64,000 bases of DNA, taken from a candidate division FCPU426 bacterium. Its GTDB lineage: Bacteria > Oederibacteriota > Muellerivitia > Muellerivitales > Muellerivitaceae. Under the pieces are notes generated by a model. It worked only from the letters and a program-made list of their open reading frames with translations. It was not told the DNA's origin and searched no databases. Shown here in pieces: positions 671-22,511 of this stretch. A program made the position numbers and the translations under genes. The stretch covers positions 128,001 to 192,000 of the forward strand of contig CAVTWJ010000009.1 in assembly GCA_963738405.1 (NCBI GenBank), in the 5' to 3' direction. Numbering within the stretch: position 1 is the first letter of the stretch; each line of letters starts with the position of its first letter.

Positions 671-3382
671 CTAATTTGCGATTAAATATTTTAGTGATAA
701 ATGTTGGAATGTGGTTGCGGCGTCAATTCCGGTTTCAGGAATAAGCAAATATGACCAAGGCTTACCCCCGATAGTAGCTTCATATTCACTTGCTCTTTTG
801 CACCACAAAACAGCGGCACGCGTCTTTTCTTCTACGTCTTTGTTTTTTATCTCATCATCATCTTTGACTTCACAAACGTATTTGGCTGAATTAGATTCAA
901 CTATGAAATCCGGCCTATATTGGCTTTCGCCTATTAAATAAATACGAATATCGTGATCGTTAGGCCGGAACCACTTTAATACATCGTTGGGGCCTTCCAA
1001 TATAATTGCAAAACGGCGTTCTGGATCTGAATCGAATTTTTGGTATTGGAAAAGGCATTTTTTAAAACCCGAAAAGACCATAGAACGGATTCGAATCCGG
1101 TCCATAACTGGTATATGAAAATCGACAGGATTTTCTCCGACCGTTCTCGCCATTCCATGACTACTTCGAAAAATATCATGAGCATCATGAACTTCCGCCT
1201 CGAATTGGGTAACGATTTGCTTAAAATGATCCTGCATTTGACCGTGAATCAAATCGACGAGTGGAGATTGGTAATAGGCAAGAACATTCCTGATTTCTTT
1301 TTCATCTTTCAAATAGCTACGCAGATGAACCACCATCTGGCCAGCTAATTTGTAAAGCAGGGCCTGATCCTGATCGTAATTGATATCGTTCTTGTCTATT
1401 AGTCCTCTAACAAGGTGATCCTCAAGCCGCACTTCCGGATGGGTGCCTGTGCCACCAGAAAGGCGTTCTTGATCATTGGTGCGAAGATGCTGAATAAGAA
1501 TATTTTCTTCAACCGGTTGGTAATGAACAGCTGATGGGTCCAGGTCGAAATCTTGAAAACCACTCTCCTTCACATCCTTAGCCGTGATATTAATTTTTGG
1601 AACAACAATAAAACGGTCTAAAAATAATTCAGATACCTTTGCTGCGATCTGTGTAATATCCACCCTAGATTGGGTTACACCAACTAACTCTTCCTGAGTA
1701 GGTCCTAACTGACTTTGGACCCATTGGACAATTTTACTCTGTGTTTCTTTTTCTTTTAATTGGCTTAACCTGTGTAAAGGGACGATTTCCTGAATAGCGG
1801 TCAAAGCAAAATCTGCAACTTTTCGTTCCTCTTCCGTTGAAAAAAGAGCAGGGACTTCATCTGCACCTGGATGAATAATACTTGGATCAGGCCGCCAAAG
1901 CGCTGTCACGGCGTTAGGGGCATCTACCACTTCTTGGCGTTGAATGGAAATATCTTTTCCAATAATGACACCAGTTCGGATAATCGAATCTGGTTTATGG
2001 GCTTCATCGATTATTTCTTGGAATCGGTCATGTGAGACGATAGTCAAACGATCAACGGCCACCACCCCGGTTCGACGCCCATAGGGAAGTCGCAAACCTC
2101 GCCCAATGCTCTGCTCAACTAAAGTTTTAGAATTAGCTGCCCGGAGTGGAACAATCGTATACAAATTAGTGACATCCCAACCTTCTTTGAGCATGTTCAC
2201 ATGGATTACGATTTCAACAGGATTAGTTAAACTTTCAACCGTTAGTAATTTTGCAACGATATGATCTTTTTCTTCTTTACCACGACCCTCACCCGAGTGG
2301 ACTGTGATAATTTTACCTTTATAACTACCTTCAAAAAAAGAATCGCTTTCCATCAAGGTTTGCAAATTTCCAGCATGTTCAATATCGGTTGCTACTACCA
2401 GCATAAAGGGTTTTTTACGGTCCACGCCCTTGTCTCGGGCATAAAGATCCAATTTAACCTTTGTATCTTCATGGACACGGATTCCATCCTCAAGTTTTAA
2501 AAGTTCTAATTCTTCTGGGTTATAACTATCAGTACTAAAATTTTCTCTAGTAGCCACGGCAGGTTCTTTAACAAAACCGTCCTTCATAGCTTCCGATAGG
2601 GGATAACTATAAATAACATTTTTAAATGCAACCTGGGTTCCACCGGTTTCAATATGCGGAGTTGCGGTTAGTTCCAAACCCAAAATCGGATTAAGTTCAT
2701 TTATTGCTTTGAGACCAGCAGCGGCTCTATAACGATGACTTTCATCCATTAATAAAACTAAATCGGGCAAATTACTTAGGTATTCAAAATAGCTCTGTCC
2801 AATGTATTCGCTGAGTCTTTTAATTCGAGGGGCATTTCCTGCACGAACTTCACTTGTAATTTTGCTGATATTGAAAATGTTGATATGAGGTTCACCGCTA
2901 TCCCACATTCGCAATTGTGAACGAGCTTCGTTTCGTACTCCGCGTCCTTGTTCATAGTTATCGCCTGTAATAATTTCGGGAGTATTCGTTACGAAATCGG
3001 CTATTCCAGTAAAAACATATTTAGGGGTGCCTGGTGTGAAATCGGAAATTAGTTTGTTGTAAATTGTTAGGTTAGGAGCCAACACAAAAAAGTGCCGACT
3101 GCGATGGGTTCGGTACAAATAGGCAATAAAGGCACCCATAAGCCGAGTTTTACCCACTCCGGTTGCTAGGGCAAAACAAAGTGATGGGAATTCTCGTTCA
3201 AAATCCTGCACAGTTGAATAGTTAGCCTTAATGGTCTCTAGCGTTGAAATCGAATTTTGCTCTTTATGAAAAGCTACCTTTTCATCTAAGTCGGCTAAAA
3301 TTTCTAGCGAACGTCGCTGTGGTTCCCTAAGTGATAGGCGTTGTGTGATATAGCTGATTTGTTGTGAGTTTAGTGGGTACAT
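671..3382 (-). CDS. res: Type III restriction endonuclease (Res) subunit, SF2 helicase plus PD-(D/E)xK nuclease
   Basis: LATGVGKT Walker A, DESH, LKEGWDV, QSIGRGLR, C-terminal YRPDF...EVK. Confidence 0.9.
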   Translation of the reverse strand: MYPLNSQQISYITQRLSLREPQRRSLEILADLDEKVAFHKEQNSISTLETIKANYSTVQDFEREFPSLCFALATGVGKTRLMGAFIAYLYRTHRSRHFFVLAPNLTIYNKLISDFTPGTPKYVFTGIADFVTNTPEIITGDNYEQGRGVRNEARSQLRMWDSGEPHINIFNISKITSEVRAGNAPRIKRLSEYIGQSYFEYLSNLPDLVLLMDESHRYRAAAGLKAINELNPILGLELTATPHIETGGTQVAFKNVIYSYPLSEAMKDGFVKEPAVATRENFSTDSYNPEELELLKLEDGIRVHEDTKVKLDLYARDKGVDRKKPFMLVVATDIEHAGNLQTLMESDSFFEGSYKGKIITVHSGEGRGKEEKDHIVAKLLTVESLTNPVEIVIHVNMLKEGWDVTNLYTIVPLRAANSKTLVEQSIGRGLRLPYGRRTGVVAVDRLTIVSHDRFQEIIDEAHKPDSIIRTGVIIGKDISIQRQEVVDAPNAVTALWRPDPSIIHPGADEVPALFSTEEERKVADFALTAIQEIVPLHRLSQLKEKETQSKIVQWVQSQLGPTQEELVGVTQSRVDITQIAAKVSELFLDRFIVVPKINITAKDVKESGFQDFDLDPSAVHYQPVEENILIQHLRTNDQERLSGGTGTHPEVRLEDHLVRGLIDKNDINYDQDQALLYKLAGQMVVHLRSYLKDEKEIRNVLAYYQSPLVDLIHGQMQDHFKQIVTQFEAEVHDAHDIFRSSHGMARTVGENPVDFHIPVMDRIRIRSMVFSGFKKCLFQYQKFDSDPERRFAIILEGPNDVLKWFRPNDHDIRIYLIGESQYRPDFIVESNSAKYVCEVKDDDEIKNKDVEEKTRAAVLWCKRASEYEATIGGKPWSYLLIPETGIDAATTFQHLSLKYLIAN

Positions 3383-3385
3383 TCG

Positions 3386-5074
3386 TTATCTCTTCTTTGA
3401 ATTTTGGGATTTATTTTTCTCGTTAAACAAATCAGATTGCCCGGTTGTAACGGATTTGGAAATTTTGTGATTATTTATGTTTTCTTCGATTTCTTCATTC
3501 TCGTCCTCTACCACCGGCAACTGGCTTACTGCCATGCTATAGTCATCTTTATCCCATTCCGCTTTATCCAAAACAGCTTTTGGGATTTTCTTTAGCGACA
3601 AATTGCCCCATTGGGTTAGGTCTTTTGCTCTCCAAGCACCGCAACAAATCAATAAACTGCGTTTAGAACCCACCTCATCACTAATCTTGACCAATTGTTC
3701 AACTGTTAAAGTTTGTGTCGTCACGTATATAAAGTCATTTTCGGTGGACTGACCGTGTCGCCAAAATTCAGTTTCGCTTGGGGAATAAGTAAAGCCTTCT
3801 AATTTGCAAACGGCTTCGGCTACCAACTCGGGATTGAATGTTGGATTAATAACCTCATTCCCCCAAGAATCCTTTTTAATCAGCGAAGGGGCAAGTCTGT
3901 AATATCTAAATCCACCGCCACCTTTCCAACCAATAGATTCGCTAATACCACCTTGGTCAGTCCCATCAATAACTTTTTTAAGTCGAGGAATGATATGGGT
4001 ATGGCAATGTTCTCCCAGTTCTATCATTATCCAACGACGACCCATTTTGTGCGCTACTGCCCCAGTGGTGCCTGAACCAGCAAATGAATCGAGAACAAAA
4101 TCGCCAGGGTTAGTAGAAATTTGTAAAATTCTTTGAATTAAACGTTCTGGTTTCGGTGTAGCGAAAACAGGCGCTGTTGGTAACAAAGTTGCAATTTCTG
4201 CACTCGCTTCTCTTGTTGTACCTGCATCGTCACCTAACCATATGCTTTCGGGAACTCTTCCGTCTTGATCTTCCAAATATATCTTTCTCAAAATCCTTGA
4301 TTCGCCATCTACAAAAGTGATTTCTCCAGTAGAAACCTTTTCATAAAACGTTTCCTTAGACCAGCGCCAACCTTTATCTGGGGGCGCAATTTTATTCCCG
4401 TTTGGTGTTTCAATGACGTATTTTAAATTTTCCCTAAGATTAGGGCTCCGGACATCACCGCTTCTCCACAAGCCGCGCGGATCACTATCAGGGTTTGAAT
4501 AATTAATGTTATTTTCTTCAGTCCTGGGCAGTTTATTACGAATAAATTTATCTGACTTTTGATAAACCAAAATGTAGTTGTGATGTAATGAAAGTTGTTT
4601 CGCGTCGTTTTTGCCTTGAATACTGTGTTGCCAAGTAATAGAACCGAAAAAATTATCCCTGCCGAACATTTCGTCGCATAGGATTTTTAAATAGTGGCAT
4701 TCATTATCGTCGATAATTATCCAAATACTTCCGTCTGGGCTTAACAAGTTTCTCAGTAATTCCAACCGATCCCGCATTAAACTTAACCAAATGGAATGTT
4801 CTACGCCGTCTTTGTAATGTTCAAATGCACTACCTGTATTGTAAGGTGGGTCAATGCAAACACATTTTATTTTTCCAGCGAACTCGTTTTCCAATGCCTT
4901 TAATCCTAATAGGTTGTCTCCGAAAATTAGTCGATTATCAAATTGATCAACATCTCGTCGAGTTTTAGAGTGAAATGAATTTGCGAAGTCGTGGATAAGA
5001 ACCCGCGGTTCAAACTTCGGCCTGTTATCTTTGCCAATCCAAGTAAGTTCAAGTTTTGTTTTTTGCCCGTTCAT
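3386..5074 (-). CDS. mod: Type III R-M Mod subunit, amino (N6-A) DNA methyltransferase
   Basis: DPPY motif, FATPKPERL, DSFAGSGTTG (beta-class order). Confidence 0.9.
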   Translation of the reverse strand: MNGQKTKLELTWIGKDNRPKFEPRVLIHDFANSFHSKTRRDVDQFDNRLIFGDNLLGLKALENEFAGKIKCVCIDPPYNTGSAFEHYKDGVEHSIWLSLMRDRLELLRNLLSPDGSIWIIIDDNECHYLKILCDEMFGRDNFFGSITWQHSIQGKNDAKQLSLHHNYILVYQKSDKFIRNKLPRTEENNINYSNPDSDPRGLWRSGDVRSPNLRENLKYVIETPNGNKIAPPDKGWRWSKETFYEKVSTGEITFVDGESRILRKIYLEDQDGRVPESIWLGDDAGTTREASAEIATLLPTAPVFATPKPERLIQRILQISTNPGDFVLDSFAGSGTTGAVAHKMGRRWIMIELGEHCHTHIIPRLKKVIDGTDQGGISESIGWKGGGGFRYYRLAPSLIKKDSWGNEVINPTFNPELVAEAVCKLEGFTYSPSETEFWRHGQSTENDFIYVTTQTLTVEQLVKISDEVGSKRSLLICCGAWRAKDLTQWGNLSLKKIPKAVLDKAEWDKDDYSMAVSQLPVVEDENEEIEENINNHKISKSVTTGQSDLFNEKNKSQNSKKR

Positions 5075-5117
5075 TTTCGATCCATTTTCGTAGATGTATT
5101 TCTAACGCTTAGTAAAC

Positions 5118-8003
5118 TTATTGAATTGTCCACCGAACGGTGAATAATTCACTTGTCTTCATTTGTCTTCCCATTCTCTCCTGAAGTTCTTGAACTAAAG
5201 ATTGGTGCTTCTCGTCCAATTCATCCTGGGCGGCAAAGATCTGAACTCGTTTTCTCTTCAATTGAACTTGTAACTCCGCGATTTTTTGTTGAATCTCAAC
5301 TTTTTCAGCTAGACTCGGCACTCGTAGGCTTTGTCGGCGGGCTTCTTTGATTTCGCGTTCAATGGAAGTCAACTCGAAATCCAGGCCTTGTTTTTGATCT
5401 TCGTGCCAAAGCTCCAGCTTGTCTAATTCGGTTTCAAAGTAGTTACGATTTCTTTCCTCCATCTGACTTAACAAAATACCGCGTTGATTTTCAGTTTGAG
5501 TTATCAGAATATCTGGGCAAGAGAGATTACATTGAGTCGAACTTAGAACATTAAGTCCTAACAAACGGCGACATTGGTCAGTATCTAACGGTTGGCCATC
5601 TTCTGTGATGCCAGCCCAAATTAAGTATTCCTCAAGTTGCAATGTATGTACTGCAACTTTAGAAAGACTTAACCAGCCAGATTTACCTAGCAAAGTTTGA
5701 ATAGCGGCTATATTTAAACGGGAACCGGTTAAATCAAGGGTTATATCTGCTGAAGGTAATTTACGAAGTTCCCATTGGTCCAATAAACGCTGGGCAAGAG
5801 GATGACCGACTCTAAAAAGGTAAGTATCTTCGACATTACGCCCTGTTCGATAAGGCCCCTCGGGTATTTCCTCACCAACGAATGGATTTTCTTTAAGAAA
5901 AAAATATTTACCTTCTGGTCCTTCTTTAAACTCTGCAAAATCACGTAATGACCAAGCAGCTAAATCCCAAAGCCAACGACTATAACGATCACGGCCTGCA
6001 ATAGCTAAATCGTCACTAAGACGCAATTTTTCTTGAACTTCGACATCGAAATTCTCTAATAATTGTTGGCGTGTTTGATCCAAACGTTCTTGAATGGGAA
6101 TTTCTAATTCCGTTCGTAGTTGTTCAAAGCTTTTGTCGATCTGTTCAGGTGTTCGACAGTGTTGATAAATATCAGCGATTCTTTTTTCGAAGTCTACGCC
6201 GCTTTCTAATGTACTTAGTACTTGGTCACTCGCGCCAAAAACACCTTCGAAAAGCTTGAACTTTTCGTCTAAAAGCTCAAATACGCGTCTATCGACTTCA
6301 TTATCGAGATTTACAAAATTAACCACTACGACGTCATGCTTTTGGCCATAACGATGACAGCGGCCAATTCTTTGTTCTATGCGTTGGGGATTCCATGGCA
6401 GGTCGTAATTAACGACTAAGTTACAAAATTGGAGGTTGATACCTTCTGCGGCTGCCTCTGTCGCAATCATAATCTGGCCATCTTCTCGGAAATAATCGAC
6501 TAAAGCTTGGCGTGTATCCGCTGTTTTTGAGCCACTGATACGAGAAGTGTTAGCATGTTTGGAAAGCCAAGCTTGATACAAAGCTTTTGCTTGGGGGCCG
6601 TTGTTACTGCCGTTGAAAAGTAATATTTTCCCATGCCATTGGCTTTTTTCGAGTAAACCCAATAGGTATTCTTGGGTTCTGGTAGATTCGGTAAAGATAA
6701 CTGCCTTTTCTGGTGCTCCCAACTCTCTTGCTTTATCAAAACCCTTCGCTAAAGCGGTCAATAAAGCTTCGCCTTTAGAATTACTGTTTATGCTTTCCGC
6801 AAGGGCCTGGAATTCACGTAATCGAGCTATTTCTAGGCGCATTTTTCGTTTTTCTTCTTCTGTGTAGACACGAACTGGTTTTGCTTCGCCGTCTTCTGTT
6901 TCCTGTTCCTCATCATCATCCACCCATTCATCTGGTTGGGCTTCACCGCCTTCATAACCTGGCGTGACCGCTTCGATGTCAAGTTCGGGTGGTGCTGGGG
7001 CAGAAGCTTGTTCTTCAAGTTTTTCCGCCAAATGGTGAAGTGTGCCGGAAATAGCAAAACTCGAGCTTGCTAATAGTTTTCGAACAATCATGGTCATCAG
7101 GGCTCGCTGACTTTTTGGCAAAGCAAAGAGCGTATCTTCTTGCAAGTAATCGGATATTAAATCATATAGTTCTTGTTCCTCTGGTTTAGGATGAAACCCT
7201 TCAGTTATAGACAAGCGGTTCGTATAACGAACGTATTCCAAAACCTGGCGTCTAAGTGTTCGTTGGCAAAGAGGTTTAAGTCTTTCCTTTAAAAGACGAA
7301 AAGAAGAGCCTTGAGTTAAGTTGGAAAATTGGGCTTTAAAAGCTTCTAAAGATCCAAACGCATGGTCGTCAACCAAGCTCACCAGCCCATAAAGTTCTAA
7401 TAGGGAATTTTGTAGTGGCGTAGCAGTTAGAAGGATTTTTGGGTGTTGTGCCAATGCTTCTTTGATTATGTTGGCGATTTTCGCAGTGGGTTTATATACA
7501 TTTCGCAAACGATGGGCTTCGTCAATTACTACCAAATCCCAAGAAGTCCCTTTTACGTAGGACGCTTTAGCTTTTGCGAAATGTAGGGAAGTAATAACCA
7601 CTCGATCTGTTTGGTCAAACGGATTAAAGCGCCCCTTTTCAGTTTCGATATTAAAAGTGGCTTTTTCTAATATAAGAGACTTTAAAAAAAACTTTTGTTC
7701 AAGTTCTTCCGCCCATTGTTTTCGAAGGCTAGCGGGGCAAATAACAAGGAGTCTTCGTTTGCGTTCAGCCCATTTTTGTGAAAGAAGGATGCCTGCTTCA
7801 ATGGTTTTTCCTAAACCCACTTCATCAGCGAGGATAGCCCCGCGAGAAAAAGGTGAACGGAAAGCAAAAAGAGCGGCTTCTACTTGATGGGGATTTAAAT
7901 CGACCTGGGCTTCGGACAAGGTTGCGGCTAATTTATCCATGCTGTCGCTAGGACATTTACGTGTAAGTTCGCTGGCAAGGTATTTAGCGTAGTAGTCGTT
8001 CAT
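5118..8003 (-). CDS. SNF2-family helicase with C-terminal coiled coil
   Basis: LADEVGLGKT, DEAH, LTATP, EGINLQ, YDLPWNP, QRIGRCHRYGQ. Confidence 0.9.
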   Translation of the reverse strand: MNDYYAKYLASELTRKCPSDSMDKLAATLSEAQVDLNPHQVEAALFAFRSPFSRGAILADEVGLGKTIEAGILLSQKWAERKRRLLVICPASLRKQWAEELEQKFFLKSLILEKATFNIETEKGRFNPFDQTDRVVITSLHFAKAKASYVKGTSWDLVVIDEAHRLRNVYKPTAKIANIIKEALAQHPKILLTATPLQNSLLELYGLVSLVDDHAFGSLEAFKAQFSNLTQGSSFRLLKERLKPLCQRTLRRQVLEYVRYTNRLSITEGFHPKPEEQELYDLISDYLQEDTLFALPKSQRALMTMIVRKLLASSSFAISGTLHHLAEKLEEQASAPAPPELDIEAVTPGYEGGEAQPDEWVDDDEEQETEDGEAKPVRVYTEEEKRKMRLEIARLREFQALAESINSNSKGEALLTALAKGFDKARELGAPEKAVIFTESTRTQEYLLGLLEKSQWHGKILLFNGSNNGPQAKALYQAWLSKHANTSRISGSKTADTRQALVDYFREDGQIMIATEAAAEGINLQFCNLVVNYDLPWNPQRIEQRIGRCHRYGQKHDVVVVNFVNLDNEVDRRVFELLDEKFKLFEGVFGASDQVLSTLESGVDFEKRIADIYQHCRTPEQIDKSFEQLRTELEIPIQERLDQTRQQLLENFDVEVQEKLRLSDDLAIAGRDRYSRWLWDLAAWSLRDFAEFKEGPEGKYFFLKENPFVGEEIPEGPYRTGRNVEDTYLFRVGHPLAQRLLDQWELRKLPSADITLDLTGSRLNIAAIQTLLGKSGWLSLSKVAVHTLQLEEYLIWAGITEDGQPLDTDQCRRLLGLNVLSSTQCNLSCPDILITQTENQRGILLSQMEERNRNYFETELDKLELWHEDQKQGLDFELTSIEREIKEARRQSLRVPSLAEKVEIQQKIAELQVQLKRKRVQIFAAQDELDEKHQSLVQELQERMGRQMKTSELFTVRWTIQ

Positions 8004-8178
8004 ACACCCTGAATTCCGGAAAAGTGTGTAAAAGTGTCCAAAAAGGCATCAGCGAGCTTAAAAATTCATCTAATTCTAACCTTTCCAAACTAATCGGTCA
8101 CATCCCATTTATTGCTTTAGGAATTGTTAAAAGAGTTGTTAGGGGGAGGGTTTGGGAGGGAAAGGCCCAAAGAATCAC

Positions 8179-8201
8179 AAAAAGTCCCGCTAGGGACTTT
8201 T
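8179..8201 (-). terminator. Probable intrinsic terminator after radC
   Basis: AAAAGTCCC-GCTA-GGGACTTTT hairpin with T tract on the minus strand. Confidence 0.55.
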
Positions 8202-8218
8202 CGGAAATTCCCGAAGAG

Positions 8219-8701
8219 TTATGCGAGAAGTCCGGCTTGGCGGAAGGAAAAGTGGCCTTCGTGAGTTACAATCAGGTGGTCATGAACCGTTAGCCCCATG
8301 GCCCTTGCAGCGGTGACGATTTGGCGGGTTAATTGCCTATCTCCTTCGGAAGCTTCAAGGCTTCCCCCTGGGTGGTTGTGAGAAAGAAGCAACCCTGAGG
8401 CGTTAAGCTCTAAAGCTTTCTTCAAGACTTCCCTGGGATAGACGGCGGTATGGTCAACGGTTCCATCTCCCATGAGTACGCAATCCAAAACATGGTTTCT
8501 GTGGTCAACGTACATGACTAAAAAGGACTCGTTGGCCTTCCCGCCTATGAAATTCCGGAAATATTCCGCCGCATCCGCAGGACCCGAAAGACATGGCCCC
8601 CTTTTGTAATCTGCCCTGGCTTCAGCCCAGCTCACCGGGGGAACCGTAGGGGGAACCTTGAACATTACGTCTAATTTCATCTCCAACTGTTTCTTTCTCA
8701 T
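8219..8701 (-). CDS. radC: RadC-like JAB/MPN domain protein (short mobile-element type)
   Basis: VYPREV...SHNHPGG...SEGD...HDHLI. Confidence 0.9.
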   Translation of the reverse strand: MRKKQLEMKLDVMFKVPPTVPPVSWAEARADYKRGPCLSGPADAAEYFRNFIGGKANESFLVMYVDHRNHVLDCVLMGDGTVDHTAVYPREVLKKALELNASGLLLSHNHPGGSLEASEGDRQLTRQIVTAARAMGLTVHDHLIVTHEGHFSFRQAGLLA

Positions 8702-9095
8702 GTGCCCTGCTCCTTAGTTTGTTAGAGGAGAGAGCACCCTCCGGGTGCGCCCCCTCACAAACGCTTGGGGGCGCAAACGGAGCGATAAGAGGAGTTCGCT
8801 TATGGAAAACCGAATCCGGGGGGAAGTGCGTTGTTCGCTTTTAGCATTATTGGGGGAAACGTCAGGCCATCTGTGCGGACGGAATTACCGAGGAACGAGG
8901 TCCGGCCGGCCTGGCGTTTAGGCGCTGTCCGACCCCAACGGCGAAGCCGCCCCCGGTTCGGTTTTCGACAGGATTTACGTTGCTGGGGGTTCCGGGGTGA
9001 TATTCCAACCGGACTAGGGATGGGAATAGGGAAGGGTCGTTTTCCTTTCCTTGGGGGGCCGGGGGAAACGCCACCCGGACAATTGAAGTTGACGA

Positions 9096-9124
9096 TAGAA
9101 ATCTAAAGAATACTTTTGTATAAT
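9096..9124 (+). promoter_or_regulatory. Sigma70-type promoter for the micro-peptide array, probably leaderless transcript
   Basis: TAGAAA (9096-9101), N17, perfect TATAAT (9119-9124); ATG begins at 9131 after 6 intervening nt. Confidence 0.55.
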
Positions 9125-9130
9125 CGTCGT

Positions 9131-9220
9131 ATGAATCATTTTAAAATGAATTTAAATATGGGCCCAAATCCACCTTCTCCTCCACCAGATGATGATGGTA
9201 TAGGAACTAGAGGTAAGTAA
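9131..9220 (+). CDS. Micro-peptide 1 (29 aa) MNHFKMNLNMGPNPPSPPPDDDGIGTRGK
   Basis: Translated by hand; shares the PxPPxD[DE]DG motif with its neighbours; TAA abuts the next ATG. Confidence 0.6.
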   Translation: MNHFKMNLNMGPNPPSPPPDDDGIGTRGK

Positions 9221-9361
9221 ATGAATAATATTGATGACCCGAAAATTCCAGAGGCGGAAAATAATGATGAACGTTCTGAAACCGTATCAAAATCGGAAGT
9301 GTCTGTTCCAGATCCGCCGGTAGATGAAGATGGAACAATTTGGAATTCCAAAGATGAATGA
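9221..9361 (+). CDS. Micro-peptide 2 (46 aa) MNNIDDPKIPEAENNDERSETVSKSEVSVPDPPVDEDGTIWNSKDE
   Basis: GAGGT SD-like sequence upstream; same motif; stop overlaps next start. Confidence 0.6.
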   Translation: MNNIDDPKIPEAENNDERSETVSKSEVSVPDPPVDEDGTIWNSKDE

Positions 9362-9455
9362 TTTCCAAGAAGATCCTAAACCAGAACCAATTCCAGCGCC
9401 TGTTCCCGAACCGCCAGAGGATGAGGATGGAACTATGCAGGAATCCGAGAGATGA
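9354..9455 (+). CDS. Micro-peptide 3 (33 aa) MNDFQEDPKPEPIPAPVPEPPEDEDGTMQESER
   Basis: 8-nt overlap with peptide 2; same motif; ATGA overlap with peptide 4. Confidence 0.6.
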   Translation: MNDFQEDPKPEPIPAPVPEPPEDEDGTMQESER

Positions 9456-9592
9456 GTTTATTTGAACGGGACCCTAATTTAATTCTCCCGCCTGAACCAC
9501 CGCCTGATGATGATGGGATTCTAGGCGCAAGCCCTATTCAACTTCCAGATCCACCTCCAGATGAAGACGGATATTTCGAAAAGAGCTTATAA
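9452..9592 (+). CDS. Micro-peptide 4 (46 aa) MSLFERDPNLILPPEPPPDDDGILGASPIQLPDPPPDEDGYFEKSL, two motif copies
   Basis: ATGA coupling; motif occurs twice. Confidence 0.6.
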   Translation: MSLFERDPNLILPPEPPPDDDGILGASPIQLPDPPPDEDGYFEKSL

Positions 9593-10111
9593 CAAGCTGA
9601 AAATTAAACTAATCGTCAAAGATATAATTAGCCCTACCAAACTTGAATACGCTGATAAATTTATTAACATCAGTTTAGCATCGTTACTTTGAATGCTTTG
9701 TTTGATTCTATCCTGGTGATAAAAAGTTATATAACCCAACATGACTTTCAGGGAATTTTCGTTACCTTCTAGTGTTGTTTTTTCTAACCACATACTCGGA
9801 TTGCTTCCTAAGGACCCATATTTATAGCTATGTAAAGAGACAACAATGAGAATCAAACTTAAAACAAAAAATGGTATTAACGATACTAGAAAATAAAACA
9901 AGTTCGGATGAGTGGTTTTAACAACGAATGAGGCGGAAATTTCACCAATTAAAAGAGTCAAGTAACCGTTGAATAAAATAAAGGCTTTCTGCTCTATTTG
10001 TTTTTTTGTTTCGATAACATCGGTTAGTTTTTTTTCCGCCTGATTTAAAGCTTCTCTAACAATACTCATGTTTATATGTTTTAAGTTTTTGATAGCTTCT
10101 TTGGTTAACAC
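9587..10111 (-). CDS. Three-TM membrane protein of unknown function
   Basis: GTG after GGGGGAGG SD; N-terminal helix, two TM, soluble loop, C-terminal TM. Confidence 0.75.
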   Translation of the reverse strand: MLTKEAIKNLKHINMSIVREALNQAEKKLTDVIETKKQIEQKAFILFNGYLTLLIGEISASFVVKTTHPNLFYFLVSLIPFFVLSLILIVVSLHSYKYGSLGSNPSMWLEKTTLEGNENSLKVMLGYITFYHQDRIKQSIQSNDAKLMLINLSAYSSLVGLIISLTISLIFSLL

Positions 10112-10175
10112 GACCTCCCCCTGAACAAGGTCACTAAATGTTTAGGGTTATGAAGTTTGGTAGAGTTCAACTTGC

Positions 10176-10820
10176 TCATTTATCAGCACCATGGGCAAGT
10201 TTTTTTAACGCGACTGATAGATCAATTACTTTGTTGTTCACTTTTTTTAAATCGCCAATCAAATGATGAAAATCTTTATATTGGCGTTGAATGATTTGTG
10301 GTGATAGTCCTGGCGATTTGGATCTTTTGTGTTCAAACCAGACTCTGAATTTTGCTTGCCATTCAGTTAGATGTGGTCGTAAGGTGTCATTCAAAAGGGA
10401 AATTAATACTTTTAGTAGTTTTTTTGCATCACCATCATCCGAAAGTTCTTCCACTGGGATAGTAACAATTAGCTCTCTGATTTTTTTAAATAGCTCATAC
10501 CAGGAATTGTAAACTTCAACTATCAAATCATGTTTTTCATCAAATGGTAATGCGGCCTTTCTTGTAACAATTTCTGCCCAAGCTACATGAGCAATTCTGG
10601 AAACTTCCGAGGTTCGTTTAAGTTTAATTTTTGAAGTCCCCAAAGGAACTTCAATCTCTTCAATTTTCCAATGCGAATTACGGTTTAAAAAAAAGTATTT
10701 AATAATCCACATAAGGAAAATTGTTCCCGTGATTAGAAATATCAACGAATTATTTAAATGAAATTTGAATCCATCACTCAGTGTGTAGGAAATGTAAACC
10801 AAATCATCATTAGTATTCAT
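10176..10820 (-). CDS. Hypothetical protein, one N-terminal TM plus helical domain
   Basis: Hydrophobic segment near residues 25-45; ATGA overlap with the Nmad2-like gene. Confidence 0.75.
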   Translation of the reverse strand: MNTNDDLVYISYTLSDGFKFHLNNSLIFLITGTIFLMWIIKYFFLNRNSHWKIEEIEVPLGTSKIKLKRTSEVSRIAHVAWAEIVTRKAALPFDEKHDLIVEVYNSWYELFKKIRELIVTIPVEELSDDGDAKKLLKVLISLLNDTLRPHLTEWQAKFRVWFEHKRSKSPGLSPQIIQRQYKDFHHLIGDLKKVNNKVIDLSVALKKLAHGADK

Positions 10821-11461
10821 TTTATTTCCGAAATGGGAAAAACTTTAGCATTTTTGAACTCTAATGGCATTCCTTTAAAGCCCCATCCGTAACTCACGTC
10901 TATCCATTTGATTATACTCTCTAAGAGTTTTGATGAAGGTTTTCGGTGACCCCTGGCTGAACAACAAATATCTTCTTTTGAAGGACCAAACATTCTAAAA
11001 CGTTTCAAGATTTTAGGGGCGTTCTCGCCGAAATAGACGAATTTATTTGAAACTAAAACACGATTAACGTTAGTGTCGTGCGTAATGTTTTTTCTGTTCG
11101 GTTTCCCTTTCTCTTTACTATGGTGCGAATCTACTTGATGCCATCGATCATTTCTAAAAAAATAAATGTTATCACCATACAGTTGTTTTAAACTCCCATT
11201 TAATTTAGGTCTTTTTGAAAAAAATCTAGGATCACGCCAGTAAGTATTGAAATCAAAAGCTTCTGTGACTTGCATTAAATAAATAATCTTCCCTGCGAAC
11301 CCATACCTGGATTTTGCGCCTGTTCCAATAATCCAATCTCCAATTTGAGCACGTGCTCTTATTTGTGGTTTGCAGGTCGCAAGCGTACACCATCCATAAA
11401 AAGGATTAGGAGCAAATCCATAATCACGGGCAACAATGTAAGAAAAAATATTTAAGGGCAT
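10817..11461 (-). CDS. Nmad2-like (nucleotide modification associated domain 2) protein
   Basis: SYIVARDYGFAPNPFYGWCTLATCKPQIR, GDWIIG, YGDNIY; likely start MPLNIF. Confidence 0.75.
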   Translation of the reverse strand: MPLNIFSYIVARDYGFAPNPFYGWCTLATCKPQIRARAQIGDWIIGTGAKSRYGFAGKIIYLMQVTEAFDFNTYWRDPRFFSKRPKLNGSLKQLYGDNIYFFRNDRWHQVDSHHSKEKGKPNRKNITHDTNVNRVLVSNKFVYFGENAPKILKRFRMFGPSKEDICCSARGHRKPSSKLLESIIKWIDVSYGWGFKGMPLEFKNAKVFPISEIK

Positions 11462-11937
11462 GTGTATCTCTTGATTTGCCATTCAGGATTTCTGTCATTC
11501 CCAGATGCTGGATCTTCCCACTTTTGAGAATTTGTGGAATTTAAAGCATCAACAATCTGTTGACTTTGCCAACCAACAATTGCTGAATCGCCTAACTTTT
11601 GTAGCATATCCGGAATATTTGCTTCAGTTGCACCCTGAGCATAAACACCAATAACTCGTTTACCTTGAGAGATGGCATATTCAATTTCCCAATTAACCCA
11701 CCAGCTAGTATGTGTGTCCTTATCAATTAGAACAACTAGAGCACTAGCCCAATCAATTCTTGGGGCTAATATATTAGTTTTGATGTATTCAGGGTCTTTT
11801 GCTTCGTTAGGTTTTTCGCTATTAATAGAACCATCTCGAACATCCATGCCAGCTTGGCCAATTAAATCTTTAAGCTTAGGTAAAAGCTCGTCATTTTCGT
11901 GTATGTGAGAGATAAATATATTTTTGATATCGGACAT
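11452..11937 (-). CDS. TIR domain protein (ThsB/DUF1863/MTH538-like)
   Basis: IFISH...LVVLI...SWWVNWEIEYA with the catalytic Glu present. Confidence 0.85.
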   Translation of the reverse strand: MSDIKNIFISHIHENDELLPKLKDLIGQAGMDVRDGSINSEKPNEAKDPEYIKTNILAPRIDWASALVVLIDKDTHTSWWVNWEIEYAISQGKRVIGVYAQGATEANIPDMLQKLGDSAIVGWQSQQIVDALNSTNSQKWEDPASGNDRNPEWQIKRYTCP

Positions 11938-12048
11938 ATTTATTAATTCCGAAATAAAAAGTTATTTGAGATCCGTTTATATATTATGCATTTGTATTAA
12001 TTAATTAGCCACGAACTAAATATTAAAATGTAACAAATAATTAGAGAT

Positions 12049-13056
12049 TCAATGAGTTTTTATTACTTTGTTTGTGCGTTTCAACCAATGGAAAAAAAGG
12101 TTTTTAAATACTCCATTTGTACATTTTAAAATTGTTTTATTTGATAATTCTTGCCAACCTCGCCGTCTTGCCGCCTCAGCTGACAAAATGAATAAAATAT
12201 TTTTGTAAGCGATTGGTGCATTTGGCCAGTAGGTAATAGCCTCGTGTTTTCGCTTAGAAAGTTTCTCGCTAATAAATAGATCAATTTTTCTGCCTAACGC
12301 GAAAAATAAATATTCGGATTGTTTTTTATTAACGGAAATGTTATCTGAATTTCTAGGCGGCTTCCCTTTTTTACAAAAAACTTTATCGGCGAGGTACAAG
12401 TGGAGGCTATCGCTGATTTGATTGTAAGAACCTACTTTAAGTTTTAACCAGCCTGCCAATATTTCTTGAAGATAAGTAAATTGTATAAAATCATAAGGAA
12501 GACCGCGAAAAAGATCATTGCTCCTTAATACTTGCAACCATTCGAGTTTACCGTCTCTAACCTTTAATAAAGAAACAATATTACAAGGAACATCTTCATT
12601 TCTTGGAAGCCCTTTTACTTTAGGAAGGTCTAAATTGGAGTCCCAAATTTCTAAAACAACCTGTCGACTTATTGAATTAGATTTTAATGTTTGATAGGCG
12701 TTCTCGAGTTGATCTAGACCATTTCTTTTTCGGAGTCGAAAACCATATGCTCCGTATAAAGTTTTACCTGAGCCTGCAAAACTAGAAAGTTCTCGGTTCC
12801 AATAAGTTAAAAATTTAGAATCATTTCGGCCATTCATTGTCCAGATGACTTCGGCTAAAGCAAAAGCGATATTCAAAGTGGGTTTTCGAGAAAAAATCCA
12901 TCTTTGACGTGGATCTTCAATTACAAAGCCTGAATGAAGTATTTCCTTTGTTGGGCCAATTCTACTTGGGTGTCTTTGATATTTTTTATTATCATTGAAT
13001 TCGTTAAAGGCTTTTCGCCAAACAATATCAGCGGATTTCCCTTGGAATATTTTCAT
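12049..13056 (-). CDS. Thymidylate synthase-fold pyrimidine (hydroxy)methyltransferase with C-terminal helical extension
   Basis: YGAYGFR, SRQVV, DVPC catalytic Cys, RSNDLFRGLPYD, SLHLY. Confidence 0.85.
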   Translation of the reverse strand: MKIFQGKSADIVWRKAFNEFNDNKKYQRHPSRIGPTKEILHSGFVIEDPRQRWIFSRKPTLNIAFALAEVIWTMNGRNDSKFLTYWNRELSSFAGSGKTLYGAYGFRLRKRNGLDQLENAYQTLKSNSISRQVVLEIWDSNLDLPKVKGLPRNEDVPCNIVSLLKVRDGKLEWLQVLRSNDLFRGLPYDFIQFTYLQEILAGWLKLKVGSYNQISDSLHLYLADKVFCKKGKPPRNSDNISVNKKQSEYLFFALGRKIDLFISEKLSKRKHEAITYWPNAPIAYKNILFILSAEAARRRGWQELSNKTILKCTNGVFKNLFFHWLKRTNKVIKTH

Positions 13057-13059
13057 TTA

Positions 13060-14055
13060 TCAAGCACCCTTTAATCCTTTTGAAATTAGATGATTGATTT
13101 TCCATTTAGGTGGATACCAAAAATGGATATTTTCTTTATTCATTTGATAGATCTGTTTAATTCTTTTACGGCCACTAAGTCCTTGGACTTCTGGATGTGC
13201 AACCCGAGAGTATTTATCAACTTCGCAAAATAAATTCTGACAATCAATATTCTTTAAAGGTCTACCCCATAGGGATTTAAAATTGATGTTAAGTCGCTCG
13301 AATTCTTCGTTTTGCACGTCAGTCACATAACGAATGATATCTGACTCGTTGTAATCATTTAAATCTTCAAAGCACTTACGGATACCATCAAGTGCACCTG
13401 GTCCAGGAACGACAAAATCATTTTCATCAAAATTAGTAATACAACTATAGTTAATATCAATCGTGAATTGATAAGCCAAAAAGTTACCAATGGTCGGGTA
13501 ACTTAATAAAATGGAAAATACTTCCTGCATTGATTTTGAGCGAGAAATATTATCAACGACACGCTCCTTCATTAAAAGTTCAATTAGTTTAAGATGATTT
13601 TTGTGTTTCTTAGAATAACCGAAATAACTTTTTCCTGAAGCCATGATATAAGCCCCGGAATATATTTTTTGATCTTCCTTTAGTGCCTTGGACAAAATCT
13701 TTTCATACATTTCGTATTTATAAGATGAAAAGCGAGGTTGTCCCAATTCCTTACAAAACAATTCCCAAGTACTGATTTTGTTAAATAATTTAAAAAGAAT
13801 AATCCTAAAAAAGATTTCTTTTGCATCAACCGGGCCTGAATAAATAACATTTTTAATTAAGTACTGACTAACTCTGTCAGAAGCACGATAGGCGTTAGTG
13901 AATTTATGTTTGGCGATAATTGGGTCGGAGGTCCATGGACTAGGTTCGTTATAAACTTTTTTAAAAAAAATCGACTGTCTTTCAGCCGCAAAAATCCAAT
14001 AAGTGTCAAATACCTTTGTGGGTTTAGGACGACTCTTAGTAGAAAAAGTAATCAT
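13060..14055 (-). CDS. aGPT-Pplase1-like / 5-hmdU DNA kinase helical-domain protein
   Basis: FAAERQ, PWTSDPII...KFTNAYRASDRVSQYLI, FLAYQFTID, PGPGALDG, QNLFCEVDKY. Confidence 0.75.
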   Translation of the reverse strand: MITFSTKSRPKPTKVFDTYWIFAAERQSIFFKKVYNEPSPWTSDPIIAKHKFTNAYRASDRVSQYLIKNVIYSGPVDAKEIFFRIILFKLFNKISTWELFCKELGQPRFSSYKYEMYEKILSKALKEDQKIYSGAYIMASGKSYFGYSKKHKNHLKLIELLMKERVVDNISRSKSMQEVFSILLSYPTIGNFLAYQFTIDINYSCITNFDENDFVVPGPGALDGIRKCFEDLNDYNESDIIRYVTDVQNEEFERLNINFKSLWGRPLKNIDCQNLFCEVDKYSRVAHPEVQGLSGRKRIKQIYQMNKENIHFWYPPKWKINHLISKGLKGA

Positions 14056-14079
14056 TGTTTATGACCTGGAATTTGATGT

Positions 14080-14802
14080 TTACTTGGATGAATTAGTTAT
14101 TTGTTTAGTGAATGGAGTAGCTATCGGTAATGTTATAGAAGGCGTATTAGGCCGAGAAGATTTAGAACTTGTGATCGAATTAACTAATATTTCTGCTAAA
14201 ACTGTAACTGCAAAAACCAGCACGCCGAACCAGAAAAACTTTTTGATAAAATCGATCGTTTCTTCAACTTTAATCAATCGTTTATTTAATGCGGCAGGTG
14301 AAGCAACTTCACCTGCCATTCTCATTACATCTTCACTAGATATTTCCATCTGATCATATTTTTTGCCATCGTATAAATCATTTGTCTTTTGATCTAGCTT
14401 GGAAAACCAGATCAAAAATATTAACTCGCCACGCGTAAGAACAATATCTCCGCTTCCAGCGTTATAGACAGAAAATTTCAGTCTCCCCCTAAATCCTGGA
14501 TCAACGTGAAATCCAGAAACATTAACTAGGCCACGAAACTTTTTGTCGGCTTTGATTGAAATAAAGCCGATCATATCGGCTGGGATGGTTACGATCTCTT
14601 CTGTGAGAAGAAGAGCGAATTGGCCTGGGGGGATAGCAGTTTGCTTACCAATCTCGAGAAATTTCTTAACCTTATCCCCGGAAATATAGACTTCAGGTCC
14701 TAGGGTTAACTCGTATGCACCGCGTTTTATGTTTTTCGAATCAGAGCTACTAATTAGTTTCGGGAGGATTTTTTTAAGACTTTCAGAGCTTAAAAAGGAC
14801 AC
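14080..14802 (-). CDS. dCTP deaminase/dUTPase-fold protein with C-terminal TM helix
   Basis: AYELTLG, IPPGQFALLLTEE, HVDPGFRG; TM FFWFGVLVFAVTVLAEILV; likely GTG start at 14802 after GGAG. Confidence 0.75.
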   Translation of the reverse strand: MSFLSSESLKKILPKLISSSDSKNIKRGAYELTLGPEVYISGDKVKKFLEIGKQTAIPPGQFALLLTEEIVTIPADMIGFISIKADKKFRGLVNVSGFHVDPGFRGRLKFSVYNAGSGDIVLTRGELIFLIWFSKLDQKTNDLYDGKKYDQMEISSEDVMRMAGEVASPAALNKRLIKVEETIDFIKKFFWFGVLVFAVTVLAEILVNSITSSKSSRPNTPSITLPIATPFTKQITNSSK

Positions 14803-14896
14803 TTTGGCTCCCAAGCAATTACGATGAATTAACGCGGCAAGTATAGCAGTTCTTAATATTGGTTAATATGTTGCAGGATTAGGGTTGTATTCGGTT

Positions 14897-15244
14897 TTAT
14901 TGAACCCACAACAGATCTCGATTTCTAATATTATCGAATCCCGTGAAGCTTCCAAATACACCATATTCTCTTTTGCCTCTGGCTTTATGAGCGTAAGAAA
15001 GCCATTTAATCTTTTCTCCAACCTTCAGGGCATAATCAAATCCAATTCGATAAAAGCCGGGTTCCATTCCGCGTGCTAAGTCTGTCCTTATCTCAATATT
15101 TCTGTCGTATCGCATTGAGCATGCAGGGTCGTTGTAATAAATGAAAATGCAATCCATACCATCCATGATTTCGTAATTATGAAAATATTCGTGAGGAAAC
15201 AACATTGGATCAATGGTGGGTAGTGAGGTATTAAAAAAGCCCAT
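14897..15244 (-). CDS. Hypothetical protein, paralog of 15265-15651
   Basis: IFIYY...GMEPGFYRIGFDYA...EYGVFG. Confidence 0.65.
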   Translation of the reverse strand: MGFFNTSLPTIDPMLFPHEYFHNYEIMDGMDCIFIYYNDPACSMRYDRNIEIRTDLARGMEPGFYRIGFDYALKVGEKIKWLSYAHKARGKREYGVFGSFTGFDNIRNRDLLWVQ

Positions 15245-15264
15245 TAAGTGCCTCTGTCAAGAAA

Positions 15265-15651
15265 TTACGCGGACCAGATAATAAGGTGTTTTGGTATTTC
15301 TCTGGGGGCCCTGACCCAAGGATGATTCACTCCCGAAAAAATCCCAAACTCCATTTTATTGTGATCGTGGTAAGCATGCAAAAGCGAATTAGGATCACCA
15401 TTTGATTCAACGGCGTAATCGAAATATGGCAGGTAGAATCCAGGTAACATGCCTAAGCTTAAATTCACTTTGACCTCGATTCTTCGCTTATAGGAAATCT
15501 GACCGAGTGAATCAAAGTCATTACCTTTTCTCGCATAGTCCCGGTAATAAACAAAAATAGTGTCTTCTCCTAAGGGATTTTGGAAACGATTGAAATATCC
15601 AACCGGATTTCCTTTTGGGTGTAACACTAATGAAGTTAGGTTGATTGCCAT
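15265..15651 (-). CDS. Hypothetical protein, paralog of 14897-15244
   Basis: Likely start MAINLT after a G-rich SD; IFVYY...GMLPGFYLPYFDYA...EFGIFS. Confidence 0.65.
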   Translation of the reverse strand: MAINLTSLVLHPKGNPVGYFNRFQNPLGEDTIFVYYRDYARKGNDFDSLGQISYKRRIEVKVNLSLGMLPGFYLPYFDYAVESNGDPNSLLHAYHDHNKMEFGIFSGVNHPWVRAPREIPKHLIIWSA

Positions 15652-15747
15652 TTTTCCCCCCTGGGAACATTCACGAATGAATTTTAAGTTAGCAGGGCAA
15701 AATATACAGCCAAATTTAGTCCAAAGAGTTTGGGACATTGGACCAGG

Positions 15748-15804
15748 TGAAGGGGGTGTGCCGAGGATCGCCGAAGGCAGCCGAGGCCAGGGGGAAGGCT
15801 TTCC
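15748..15804 (+). repeat. Structured intergenic repeat, copy 1
   Basis: TGAAGGGGGTGTGCCGAGGATCGCCGAAGGCAGCCGAGGCCAGGGGGAAGG. Confidence 0.85.
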
Positions 15805-15821
15805 ACCAAGAGACGAGTCTT

Positions 15822-16031
15822 TTAACCGGAACGTCTTCTTTGTCTTGCATGAAGTTTCGCATGTGCGTTTGGGCTCATATTGATGAGATTGTTACGTCTG
15901 AAGTTTTTCGGATTTCCGTCTATATGATGCGTGACTTGATTCCCTTTGGGTTTGGCAACAGTTCTATGAACCAATAACCCGCTATTATTCCAGACAGGAT
16001 ATCCTTTTGGATTGTAATGAAACCTTCCCAT
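15822..16031 (-). CDS. Minimal HNH endonuclease-like protein
   Basis: VHRTVA...HHIDGNPKNFRRNNL...HAKLH; AGGAG SD before MGRFHY. Confidence 0.75.
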   Translation of the reverse strand: MGRFHYNPKGYPVWNNSGLLVHRTVAKPKGNQVTHHIDGNPKNFRRNNLINMSPNAHAKLHARQRRRSG

Positions 16032-16061
16032 GAATTTTCTCCTTTCACCCATGAACTTCGC

Positions 16062-16418
16062 TTACGCACTCAACCTTACATGTAGAAGCCAGACATCGAC
16101 CACCATGTGAAATTCATAATCATCTAAAGGCATTCCATGTCTGAGTTTGGTGGCGATTCGACGGTCAAAATCGGCATGCTCTCCCTTCGCCTCCGGTGAG
16201 GGCTCAACGATCTCGATGGCAAATTTCAACAGATCCCCAGTCAACCGTTCATTGCGAATCAGCTTCCTTTTTATTTGGCCACAGCGCCAGTTTCGGAGTT
16301 TGCGAGCTTCCTCCTTTTCGGGATTCCGAAACGCGCGCATGAAACAATCTTCCATGAACAAATCTTCTGGCCAAACCAATTCGAACGGTTTCTTTGGCTC
16401 ATTTTTCATAGGCTTCAC
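16062..16418 (-). CDS. Hypothetical protein
   Basis: 118-aa ORF co-oriented with neighbours; start uncertain. Confidence 0.55.
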   Translation of the reverse strand: MKPMKNEPKKPFELVWPEDLFMEDCFMRAFRNPEKEEARKLRNWRCGQIKRKLIRNERLTGDLLKFAIEIVEPSPEAKGEHADFDRRIATKLRHGMPLDDYEFHMVVDVWLLHVRLSA

Positions 16419-20947: not shown

Positions 20948-21490
20948 TTAGGGTTTCAAGGGTTTGATTTGAGCCACAATGATGCGTAATTTTTTGGCCG
21001 CGTCAAAGATGCGGTCGTCCCGGTAAAACTCACCGTAATAAATAGATTTGATACCGGCATTGGCTACCATCTTGAAACAATTCCAGCAAGGAGACGCGGT
21101 GACATAGATATCAGCTCCGTCCACCCTTACCCCGTTGCGGGCCGCTTGGATGATAGCGTTGGCTTCCGCGTGAATCGTGGCCACGCAGTGATTGTCCTCC
21201 ATCATATGGCCAGCGTCGTCGCAATGGGGAAGGCCACGGACGCTTCCGTTGTATCCCGTGGAAAGAATGGTTTTGTCGCGGACTATCACTGCCCCGACAT
21301 GTTTACGGTCACAGGTAGAACGGGTGGCCACTTCGGTGGCGATATTCATGAAATATTGGTGCCAATCTACCCGGATTCGATGGGAAGGTTTGGATTGTTG
21401 AGTCTGTTTCATTTGAAGTGGGGAGGTGTTTCTCTTCCTTAAACGTTGGACCGATTTTTTTTTGAACTTCATGCGGATTTTTTGAGCCAT
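20948..21490 (-). CDS. dCMP deaminase / ComEB family
   Basis: RSTC, STGYNG, HAEANA, SPCWNC. Confidence 0.88.
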   Translation of the reverse strand: MAQKIRMKFKKKSVQRLRKRNTSPLQMKQTQQSKPSHRIRVDWHQYFMNIATEVATRSTCDRKHVGAVIVRDKTILSTGYNGSVRGLPHCDDAGHMMEDNHCVATIHAEANAIIQAARNGVRVDGADIYVTASPCWNCFKMVANAGIKSIYYGEFYRDDRIFDAAKKLRIIVAQIKPLKP

Positions 21491-21550
21491 AACCCCCTCC
21501 GAGTCAAAAGCTAAACTAATTTACCAAAATTTATTGGTTTTCGATCCTTT

Positions 21551-22462: not shown

Positions 22463-22477
22463 ATGGGCCTCGAAAAT

Positions 22478-22509
22478 AAAAAAAGCCCCGGAATTTCCGG
22501 GGCTTTTTT
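22478..22509. terminator. Bidirectional intrinsic terminator
   Basis: AAAAAAAGCCCCGGAATTTCCGGGGCTTTTTT. Confidence 0.8.
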
Positions 22510-22511
22510 GC

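Follow-up and report, generated by a model that had tools for sequence, protein, structure and literature searches.

A probable micro-gene array

The stretch of DNA analysed here (64,000 nt, called the window: positions 128,001 to 192,000 of the forward strand of contig CAVTWJ010000009.1, assembly GCA_963738405.1, from a candidate division FCPU426 bacterium; coordinates below count from its first nucleotide) contains, on the + strand at 9131-9592, an array of four very short open reading frames (ORFs). All four are ATG-started, they tile the interval without gaps at 29, 46, 33 and 46 amino acids (aa), and they share the motif P.PP.D[DE]DG. The array is real and statistically unusual and, judged from its sequence, probably coding; within the searches made it is a single instance. 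An earlier note on this DNA had pointed out the four ORFs, their junctions and five motif copies, all of which were confirmed, and had proposed a translationally coupled micro-gene operon under selection for its peptides, which is supported by the codon, GC and chain tests described below. The features of the array are as follows (GC1, GC2 and GC3 are the GC contents of the three codon positions).

9096-9124, + strand: promoter-like site TAGAAA-N17-TATAAT, 10/12 matches
9131-9220, + strand: ORF1, 29 aa, MNHFKMNLNMGPNPPSPPPDDDGIGTRGK; charge near neutral; without a Shine-Dalgarno sequence; GC1/2/3 = 0.47/0.43/0.17
9173-9199, + strand: motif copy 1, PSPPPDDDG, in ORF1
9221-9361, + strand: ORF2, 46 aa, net charge about -10; GAGG about 7 nt upstream of the ATG; GC3 0.26
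9308-9334, + strand: motif copy 2, PDPPVDEDG, in ORF2
9354-9455, + strand: ORF3, 33 aa, net charge about -9.5; in a different genomic frame; GC3 0.32 in its own frame
9405-9431, + strand: motif copy 3, PEPPEDEDG, in ORF3 and in ORF3's own frame
9452-9592, + strand: ORF4, 46 aa, net charge about -9.5; carries two motif copies
9491-9517, + strand: motif copy 4, PEPPPDDDG, in ORF4
9545-9571, + strand: motif copy 5, PDPPPDEDG, in ORF4

The ATG of ORF2 abuts the TAA of ORF1 (TAA/ATG), ORF2 and ORF3 overlap by 8 nt (ATGAATGA), and the start of ORF4 overlaps the stop of ORF3 as ATGA. ORF1, ORF2 and ORF4 lie in one genomic frame, from which ORF3 is offset by one base; the motif is kept across this change of frame, as had been claimed. 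An alternative in-frame ATG for ORF3 lies upstream at 9324 and would give a protein of 43 aa, but the start at 9354 is preferred because ORF1, ORF2 and ORF3 then all open with ATGAAT.ATTT. Shine-Dalgarno-like sequences (GAGG or AGGA) are found upstream of ORF2 and ORF4, and every cistron has either stop/start coupling or a ribosome-binding context, ORF1 being possibly leaderless. The segment 9096-9130, which contains the promoter-like site, is 26% GC and directly follows a spacer of 59% GC. A start 7 nt past the -10 box of this site would be the A of the ORF1 ATG (9131), and if that predicted start is used ORF1 may be a leaderless first cistron; as the promoter of the array the site is suggestive only. 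No terminator-like sites were found on either strand within 8600-10300.

The five copies of P.PP.D[DE]DG, all within the array, are the only matches to the motif in the six frames of the 64 kb, and shuffling the window 200 times and the region 2000 times produced none. From the last motif Gly to the stop there are 6, 8, 7 and 6 residues in ORF1 to ORF4. The short variable tails described in the earlier note are thus present, though their lengths past the residue following the Gly are 5, 7, 6 and 5 aa rather than the range of 5-8 given there. The N-termini can be aligned as M-[NS]-x-[FI]-x-x-D-P-[KN], and the repeat unit consists of a start codon, this N-terminal segment, a variable spacer, the motif, a tail of 6-8 residues and a stop.

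The predicted products are of unusual composition. Asp, Glu and Pro together make up 31-58% of their residues, against a median of 15% in the long frames of the window; the densest stretches reach 9 of 10 consecutive residues, and in every ORF the D/E/P-rich stretches occur among the first 40 residues. Three of the four peptides carry a net charge of about -10. All lack Cys, hydrophobic segments and a signal-like start, and their tails are poor in Ser and Thr. AlphaFold2 gave no secondary structure for ORF4 (pTM 0.15, mean pLDDT 67.6). The peptides should be cytoplasmic, extended and disordered. Readings of the motif as EF-hand-like, thrombospondin-type-3-like, SSB-tail-like or EVH1-ligand-like fitted its residue positions inconsistently and were set aside.

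Evidence that the array is probably coding

A DNA repeat finder, which is blind to reading frames, gave two repeat families in the array, of 42 and 32 nt, and in both the first base of every copy falls at the same codon phase of its own ORF. In one of these families the variable columns number 6, 4 and 11 at codon positions 1, 2 and 3 (of 14 each), and in the other 2/11, 3/11 and 9/10. Over the nine motif codons the mean pairwise identity is 0.89, 0.88 and 0.38 at the three positions, and third positions supply 8 of the 12 variable motif columns (P = 1.6e-3); the synonymous sites of the motif are thus near saturation while positions 1 and 2 are held. The earlier note had argued from synonymous codon variation to selection on the peptide. 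That argument is partly circular where it concerns the conserved residues, as is a figure of 0/14 against 6/7, computed only on codons picked as conserved; the less biased comparisons just given do hold.

Base composition points the same way. Across the four ORFs GC1 is 0.47-0.71, GC2 0.36-0.43 and GC3 0.17-0.32, and the third position is the GC-poorest phase in all four, the frame-shifted ORF3 included. The layout itself is also uncommon: if a coupled chain is taken to be ORFs of 25-60 aa in which no start is more than 8 nt from the preceding stop, the chain of four seen here is the single instance on both strands of the window, and of 100 shuffles of the 64 kb one gave such a chain. The - strand frames across the array are short and have no notable features.

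These four lines of evidence, all internal to the sequence, appear largely independent, and it is likely that 9131-9592 is a real array of coding micro-genes. The four look like paralogs forming a small, translationally coupled operon that has been kept by selection on peptide sequence. The origin of the array in an old tandem duplication of one unit is considered shown, as judged from the copies themselves: their synonymous sites are saturated while the motif is held, and the copies should therefore be both old and under constraint, a constraint that might concern either the peptide made or the process of translating it.

The same arrangement might be what is left of one longer gene, an acidic, proline-rich repeat protein of about 150 aa, split up through one nonsense mutation and two frameshifts that compensate each other, or through errors of assembly. 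ORF1, ORF2 and ORF4 do share a frame, and the offset of ORF3 is such that the two shifts cancel (133 + 98 = 231 nt); the open stretches overlap at both frame shifts, a recent pseudogene would still show the codon-phase signals, and a gene finder called only one of the four ORFs. A broken gene does not readily explain, however, that at each of the three breaks the following unit has its ATG no more than 8 nt away, that ORF1, ORF2 and ORF3 have the 12-nt start ATGAAT.ATTT in common and N-termini that align, that the stops come at a regular 6-8 residues past the motif, or that GAGG or AGGA stands ahead of ORF2 and ORF4. Nor is the TAA between ORF1 and ORF2 explicable as an indel error; HMMER, with ORF4 as query against 1.84 billion representatives, turned up no longer, intact relative, and a coupled chain like this would be expected by chance in about one of 100 stretches of 64 kb. 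A remnant of this kind is considered improbable.

Searches for relatives

A relative of the peptides is found in none of the protein, family, structure, phage and plasmid searches. A word-indexed search of 5.8 billion predicted proteins, with ORF4 and with a profile of the four peptides, returned only the window's own ORF2, and HMMER gave no match to ORF4 at E <= 0.001 among 1.84 billion representatives of any length. Comparison of ORF4 and ORF2 with phages and plasmids by tblastn yielded nothing, or matches with E >= 2. Pfam, NCBIfam and PHROGs hold no family for the peptides, the ESM Atlas gave no usable match, and the one match in the PDB, PEPPPDTDG in a P450 (E 0.38), is due to chance.

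The earlier note had looked to comparable arrays beside homologs of the neighbouring genes. Two of these neighbours (described below) do have plasmid homologs, 16 matches at 34-50% identity for Nmad2 and 2 for a 214-aa protein. The motif, even in its loosest form, is absent from all seven plasmid loci with distant Nmad2 or 214-aa homologs that were covered (7 of the 18 matches), and no relative of the peptides occurs among the predicted proteins searched; this expectation was accordingly disappointed.

A scan of a genome collection at the DNA level, with the pattern CCNGANCCNCCNNNNGAYGANGAYGG, gave at least 120 matches; the pattern is too common in high-GC genomes, and the scan says little either way. 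Among the matches listed, all were single and mostly from high-GC genomes (median locus GC 0.68), with the exception of locus L080, and the window's own locus was not present. L080 (Streptomyces sp. NPDC005202, 9920-10027), the one with several copies among the matches listed, is a tandem GPDPPPDDE linker within a frame of 381 codons, and was judged unrelated. This low-complexity linker matches by composition, and the motif alone is therefore not diagnostic in high-GC genomes.

In the literature, no paper with the motif strings was found (there was one irrelevant match), and none joining small ORFs, translational coupling, a defence island and polyproline. We found no comparable system described there or in the family searches, in agreement with the earlier note, whose author did not recognise one.

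Several of these results count against a functional peptide operon and should be set beside the coding evidence. Conservation of the ORFs across genomes, the strongest test of function, was not seen in the searches made; the peptides are without relatives and the seven plasmid loci without the motif; ORF2 (P0004) is the only one of the four ORFs present in the predicted-protein collection; and the signal of selection comes entirely from the paralogs of one locus. The promoter claimed in the earlier note has the pattern and the spacing to the first ATG that were described, but such sites are not enriched over shuffles (2 found, 2.7 expected).

It could be held on these grounds that the array has no present function, and is either a DNA repeat that has diverged or a group of young proto-genes, open in one frame by chance; alternatively, the repeats might act at the DNA or RNA level, for example in the 3' untranslated region of the - strand operon described below. 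That the array is an orphan in every search, sits in the 3' flank of that operon and has no significant promoter all fit. Saturated third positions alongside held first and second positions are not expected of a non-coding repeat, however, the GC phase tracks each ORF's own frame in 4/4 cases, and the - strand frames over the region are short and unremarkable. Absence of present function is accordingly given little weight.

Genomic surroundings

The array lies, as the earlier note had supposed, in a defence island setting: to its left are a Type III restriction-modification (R-M) system, a DrmD-like helicase and RadC, and to its right is an operon resembling the defence system DS-4, with genes for a thymidylate synthase (TS), a 5-hydroxymethyldeoxyuridine (5-hmdU) kinase, a TIR protein and Nmad2. 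The neighbouring features are:

671-8701, - strand: Type III restriction enzyme and methylase, 961-aa DrmD-like SNF2 helicase and RadC-like JAB gene; a defence block abutting the island
8702-9095, between RadC and the array: GC-rich spacer, 59% GC
9587-10111, - strand: 174-aa basic membrane protein with two transmembrane-like segments, isoelectric point 9.2; last gene of the defence operon
10176-14814, - strand: low-GC DS-4-like operon, six genes, with Pfam and PADLOC matches

GC content falls sharply at about 9096, and the GC3 of the array is comparable to that of the adjoining low-GC island genes (0.26-0.34); because GC3 and codon preferences match those of the island, the array is assigned to it and not to the RadC side. 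All long ORFs between 9587 and 28462 are on the - strand, so that the array is transcribed toward the operon (convergently), and no + strand gene lies downstream of it between 9592 and 28712. Tail to tail, the 174-aa gene and ORF4 have 6 nt in common, the last codon and stop of ORF4 (9587-9592) lying across the stop of that gene.

Read from 14814 downward, the operon encodes a dCTP-deaminase-like protein (14080-14814), a 5-hmdU DNA kinase, a thymidylate-synthase-like protein, a ThsB-type TIR protein, Nmad2, the 214-aa protein and the 174-aa protein. The island proteins are mostly strongly basic (TS-like +27, Nmad2 +18, 5-hmdU kinase +14), and two of them are basic membrane proteins. The 174-aa protein has only two relatives (69% and 41% identity), belongs to no family and gave no tblastn match in plasmids or phages. 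The 214-aa protein is membrane-anchored, and its single-sequence model is poor (pLDDT 57). In the Atlas it falls, at 0.96, in an unnamed cluster of 140 members. Its only good plasmid homolog (36.7% identity; locus L122, 3433-8594 of an Aureispira sp. CCB-E plasmid) stands last in a row made up of four genes with TIR domains and one resembling nucleoside 2-deoxyribosyltransferase, a context which suggests that the 214-aa family is a TIR-associated component. The operon DNA has no match in E. coli genomes, and no tRNA gene, flanking direct repeat or integrase was found to mark the ends of the island.

Some further observations concern the surroundings only. The segment 8702-9130 folds far better than its shuffles on the - strand (minimum free energy -154.3 kcal/mol, z -3.77, 0 of 100 shuffles), with z -2.14 on the + strand; it has no Rfam match and, from these folding predictions, may represent a structured leader of RadC or an RNA not yet described. 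A 19-nt stretch of the GC-rich spacer (8960-8978) is repeated exactly at 31256-31274 (E 9e-5 within the window). Farther along the - strand, 16925-17908 encodes a Fic domain fused to a MerR-type helix-turn-helix and matches the PADLOC candidates PDC-S04 and SoFic, while 20948-23264 includes a ComEB/dCMP-deaminase-like gene and a protein-kinase-like ORF with weak matches to the anti-phage dCTP deaminase model and to MADS6/PglW respectively, both far below the curated cut-offs.

Possible functions

For the function of the peptides the reading we favour, though only tentatively, is that they are disordered acidic ligands with the shared motif as a docking site, that they inhibit or regulate a basic protein of the island, and that their supply is tied to the state of translation. 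The peptides would act in trans, the motif serving as a short linear docking site, and the likeliest partner would be one of the strongly basic island proteins -- the TS-like protein, Nmad2, the 5-hmdU kinase or a basic membrane protein -- which binding would hold in check or regulate. The peptide sequences are of the polyproline and acidic/proline kind, on which ribosomes perform poorly; because they are hard to translate, peptide supply would drop fast when translation is disturbed, as in a phage take-over, and the falling supply would release the partner. D/E-P-P-x motifs depend on EF-P. The idea of such a partner draws on the strongly basic character of the neighbouring proteins and on the likeness of the operon to a defence system validated in E. 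coli. Against it, the array is on the strand opposite the operon, which is unusual for protein antitoxins, and the E. coli DS-4, as listed, has five genes and no such peptides (PMC13092281). For the earlier note's suggestion that the peptides are antitoxins, decoys or baits no support was found.

A bolder form of the same proposal would make the array the first example, in a defence island, of a translation-gated inhibitor. Here motif copies carried on hard-to-translate, unstable micro-peptides would silence the DS-4-like system or its membrane effectors, and a phage perturbing translation (EF-P, Mg2+, tRNA or ribosome stability) would collapse their supply, whereupon the system would fire. 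So specific a scheme is offered as a long shot.

Acidic stretches with intermittent prolines near the N-terminus are reported to abort translation (10.1101/2021.02.02.429294; PMC12856214). According to these sources, the risk of such intrinsic ribosome destabilization (IRD) is highest near N-termini, and MgtL exploits IRD, together with Rho, for regulation. The array could accordingly be a cis-acting translation sensor of MgtL-like logic, in which ribosome pausing or drop-off (responding to EF-P, Mg2+ or prolyl-tRNA) is what matters and not the product; the output would be the reach of a + strand antisense RNA into the convergent operon, or the strength of the collision between the two transcription units. 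The D/E/P-rich stretches do come early in each ORF, within the first 40 residues; the motif stands at a fixed 6-8 residues from the stop, a distance that would place it within the exit tunnel as translation terminates; stops and the starts that follow them overlap; and the array overlaps the operon tail to tail, with no terminator-like site on either strand in 8600-10300. There is, however, no same-strand gene downstream to be controlled, the + strand RNA is no more structured than shuffles (z +0.97), with no attenuator-like switch visible and no Rfam match, and four successive leader ORFs with an exact nine-residue motif and an invariant Gly exceed what composition-driven stalling needs. We regard a sensor of this kind as unlikely, though it is the chief rival of the ligand proposal.

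The peptides may instead act in trans as cargo of a mobile island, without any relation to the DS-4-like operon, for example as acidic anti-restriction or DNA-mimic-like peptides or as inhibitors of host factors, helping the island to establish itself beside the Type III R-M and DrmD-like genes. Small acidic proteins and a 26-residue phage peptide act on restriction enzymes. A net charge of about -10 within 33-46 residues would suit such a role, as would the position of the array between the restriction/helicase/RadC block and an island of foreign composition. Against this, the peptides match no anti-restriction family in Pfam, NCBIfam or PHROGs (the PADLOC search covered the neighbours only), known DNA mimics are folded while these peptides are predicted to be unstructured, and the island has no integrase, tRNA gene or flanking direct repeat. 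A cargo role is on balance distinctly unlikely.

Several paralogous short precursors, each with a constant motif and a variable tail, would also be in keeping with a library of precursors like those of ribosomally synthesized and post-translationally modified peptides (RiPPs), as the earlier note had suggested, with the constant motif recognised by a maturation enzyme that processes the variable core or tail; the window does have a B12-radical SAM gene (36672-38204), and no other of the radical SAM kind lies closer to the array. That gene is 27 kb away on the other strand, however, and 8219-16418 has no YcaO, lanthipeptide synthetase, peptidase or exporter. With no maturation enzyme adjacent, no Cys, few Ser or Thr in the tails and no match to a leader family, this suggestion fell away, and we hold it to be extremely unlikely.

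Returning to the micro-gene array as such, if it is expressed it would represent a family of proteins of fewer than 50 residues that gene finders largely miss. It adjoins a type of nucleotide-modification defence system that has recently been validated and is mechanistically unexplained. Should it be true that acidic polyproline micro-peptides regulate such a system, whether as ligands or through the act of their translation, the biology of ribosome stalling would be tied to phage defence. An array restricted to this genome would be a well-documented curiosity and a useful test case for the annotation of small ORFs.

Comparison with known systems

The known kinds of element behind the array are tandem micro-protein genes and short ORFs rich in D, E and P. 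Among the latter, MgtL and IRD sequences are alike in consisting of very short ORFs with acidic residues and intermittent prolines near the N-terminus. MgtL, however, is one ORF that precedes its target gene on the same strand and acts by way of an RNA switch and Rho; the array consists of four coupled ORFs with a fixed nine-residue motif, no same-strand target and no unusual RNA structure.

The staphylococcal psm-alpha operon and tandem type I toxin genes are examples of several short paralogous genes lying head to tail in one transcription unit. Their peptides are amphipathic or hydrophobic and act on membranes. The head-to-tail micro-paralogs are thus similar, but the peptides of the array are rich in acidic residues and proline, and they lack hydrophobic segments and predicted helices. 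In RiPP precursor families such as the prochlorosins, a conserved recognition part is joined to variable cores, and the constant and variable segments of the array are comparable, though it has no adjacent maturation enzyme, no Cys/Ser/Thr-rich core and no leader family match.

Labile acidic antitoxins and T4 Stp-like modulators are small, partly disordered inhibitors; when translation stops they are lost, and a toxic partner is set free. Antitoxins as a rule share a transcript with the toxin and belong to known families. The array peptides are like them in being small, acidic and, by prediction, disordered, and in their defence-island setting. They differ in their convergent orientation and in having no homology to them, and their partner is putative.

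A further relationship is that of the neighbouring operon, which on sequence grounds resembles the nucleotide-modification defence system DS-4 ('NTTI') of the DefensePredictor study. As given there, DS-4 comprises TS, a deoxynucleoside monophosphate (dNMP) kinase, a 5-hydroxymethyluracil (5-hmU) kinase, a TIR/NDT-like protein and Nmad2, and its anti-phage activity was validated in E. coli (PMC13092281, Table S8). Of that listing the operon has the thymidylate-synthase-like protein, 5-hmdU DNA kinase, ThsB/NDT-type TIR and Nmad2. It departs from it in having a dCTP-deaminase-like gene and no match to the dNMP kinase, in the order of its genes, and in the addition of two basic membrane proteins (174 and 214 aa), both nearly without relatives, and of the convergent peptide array.

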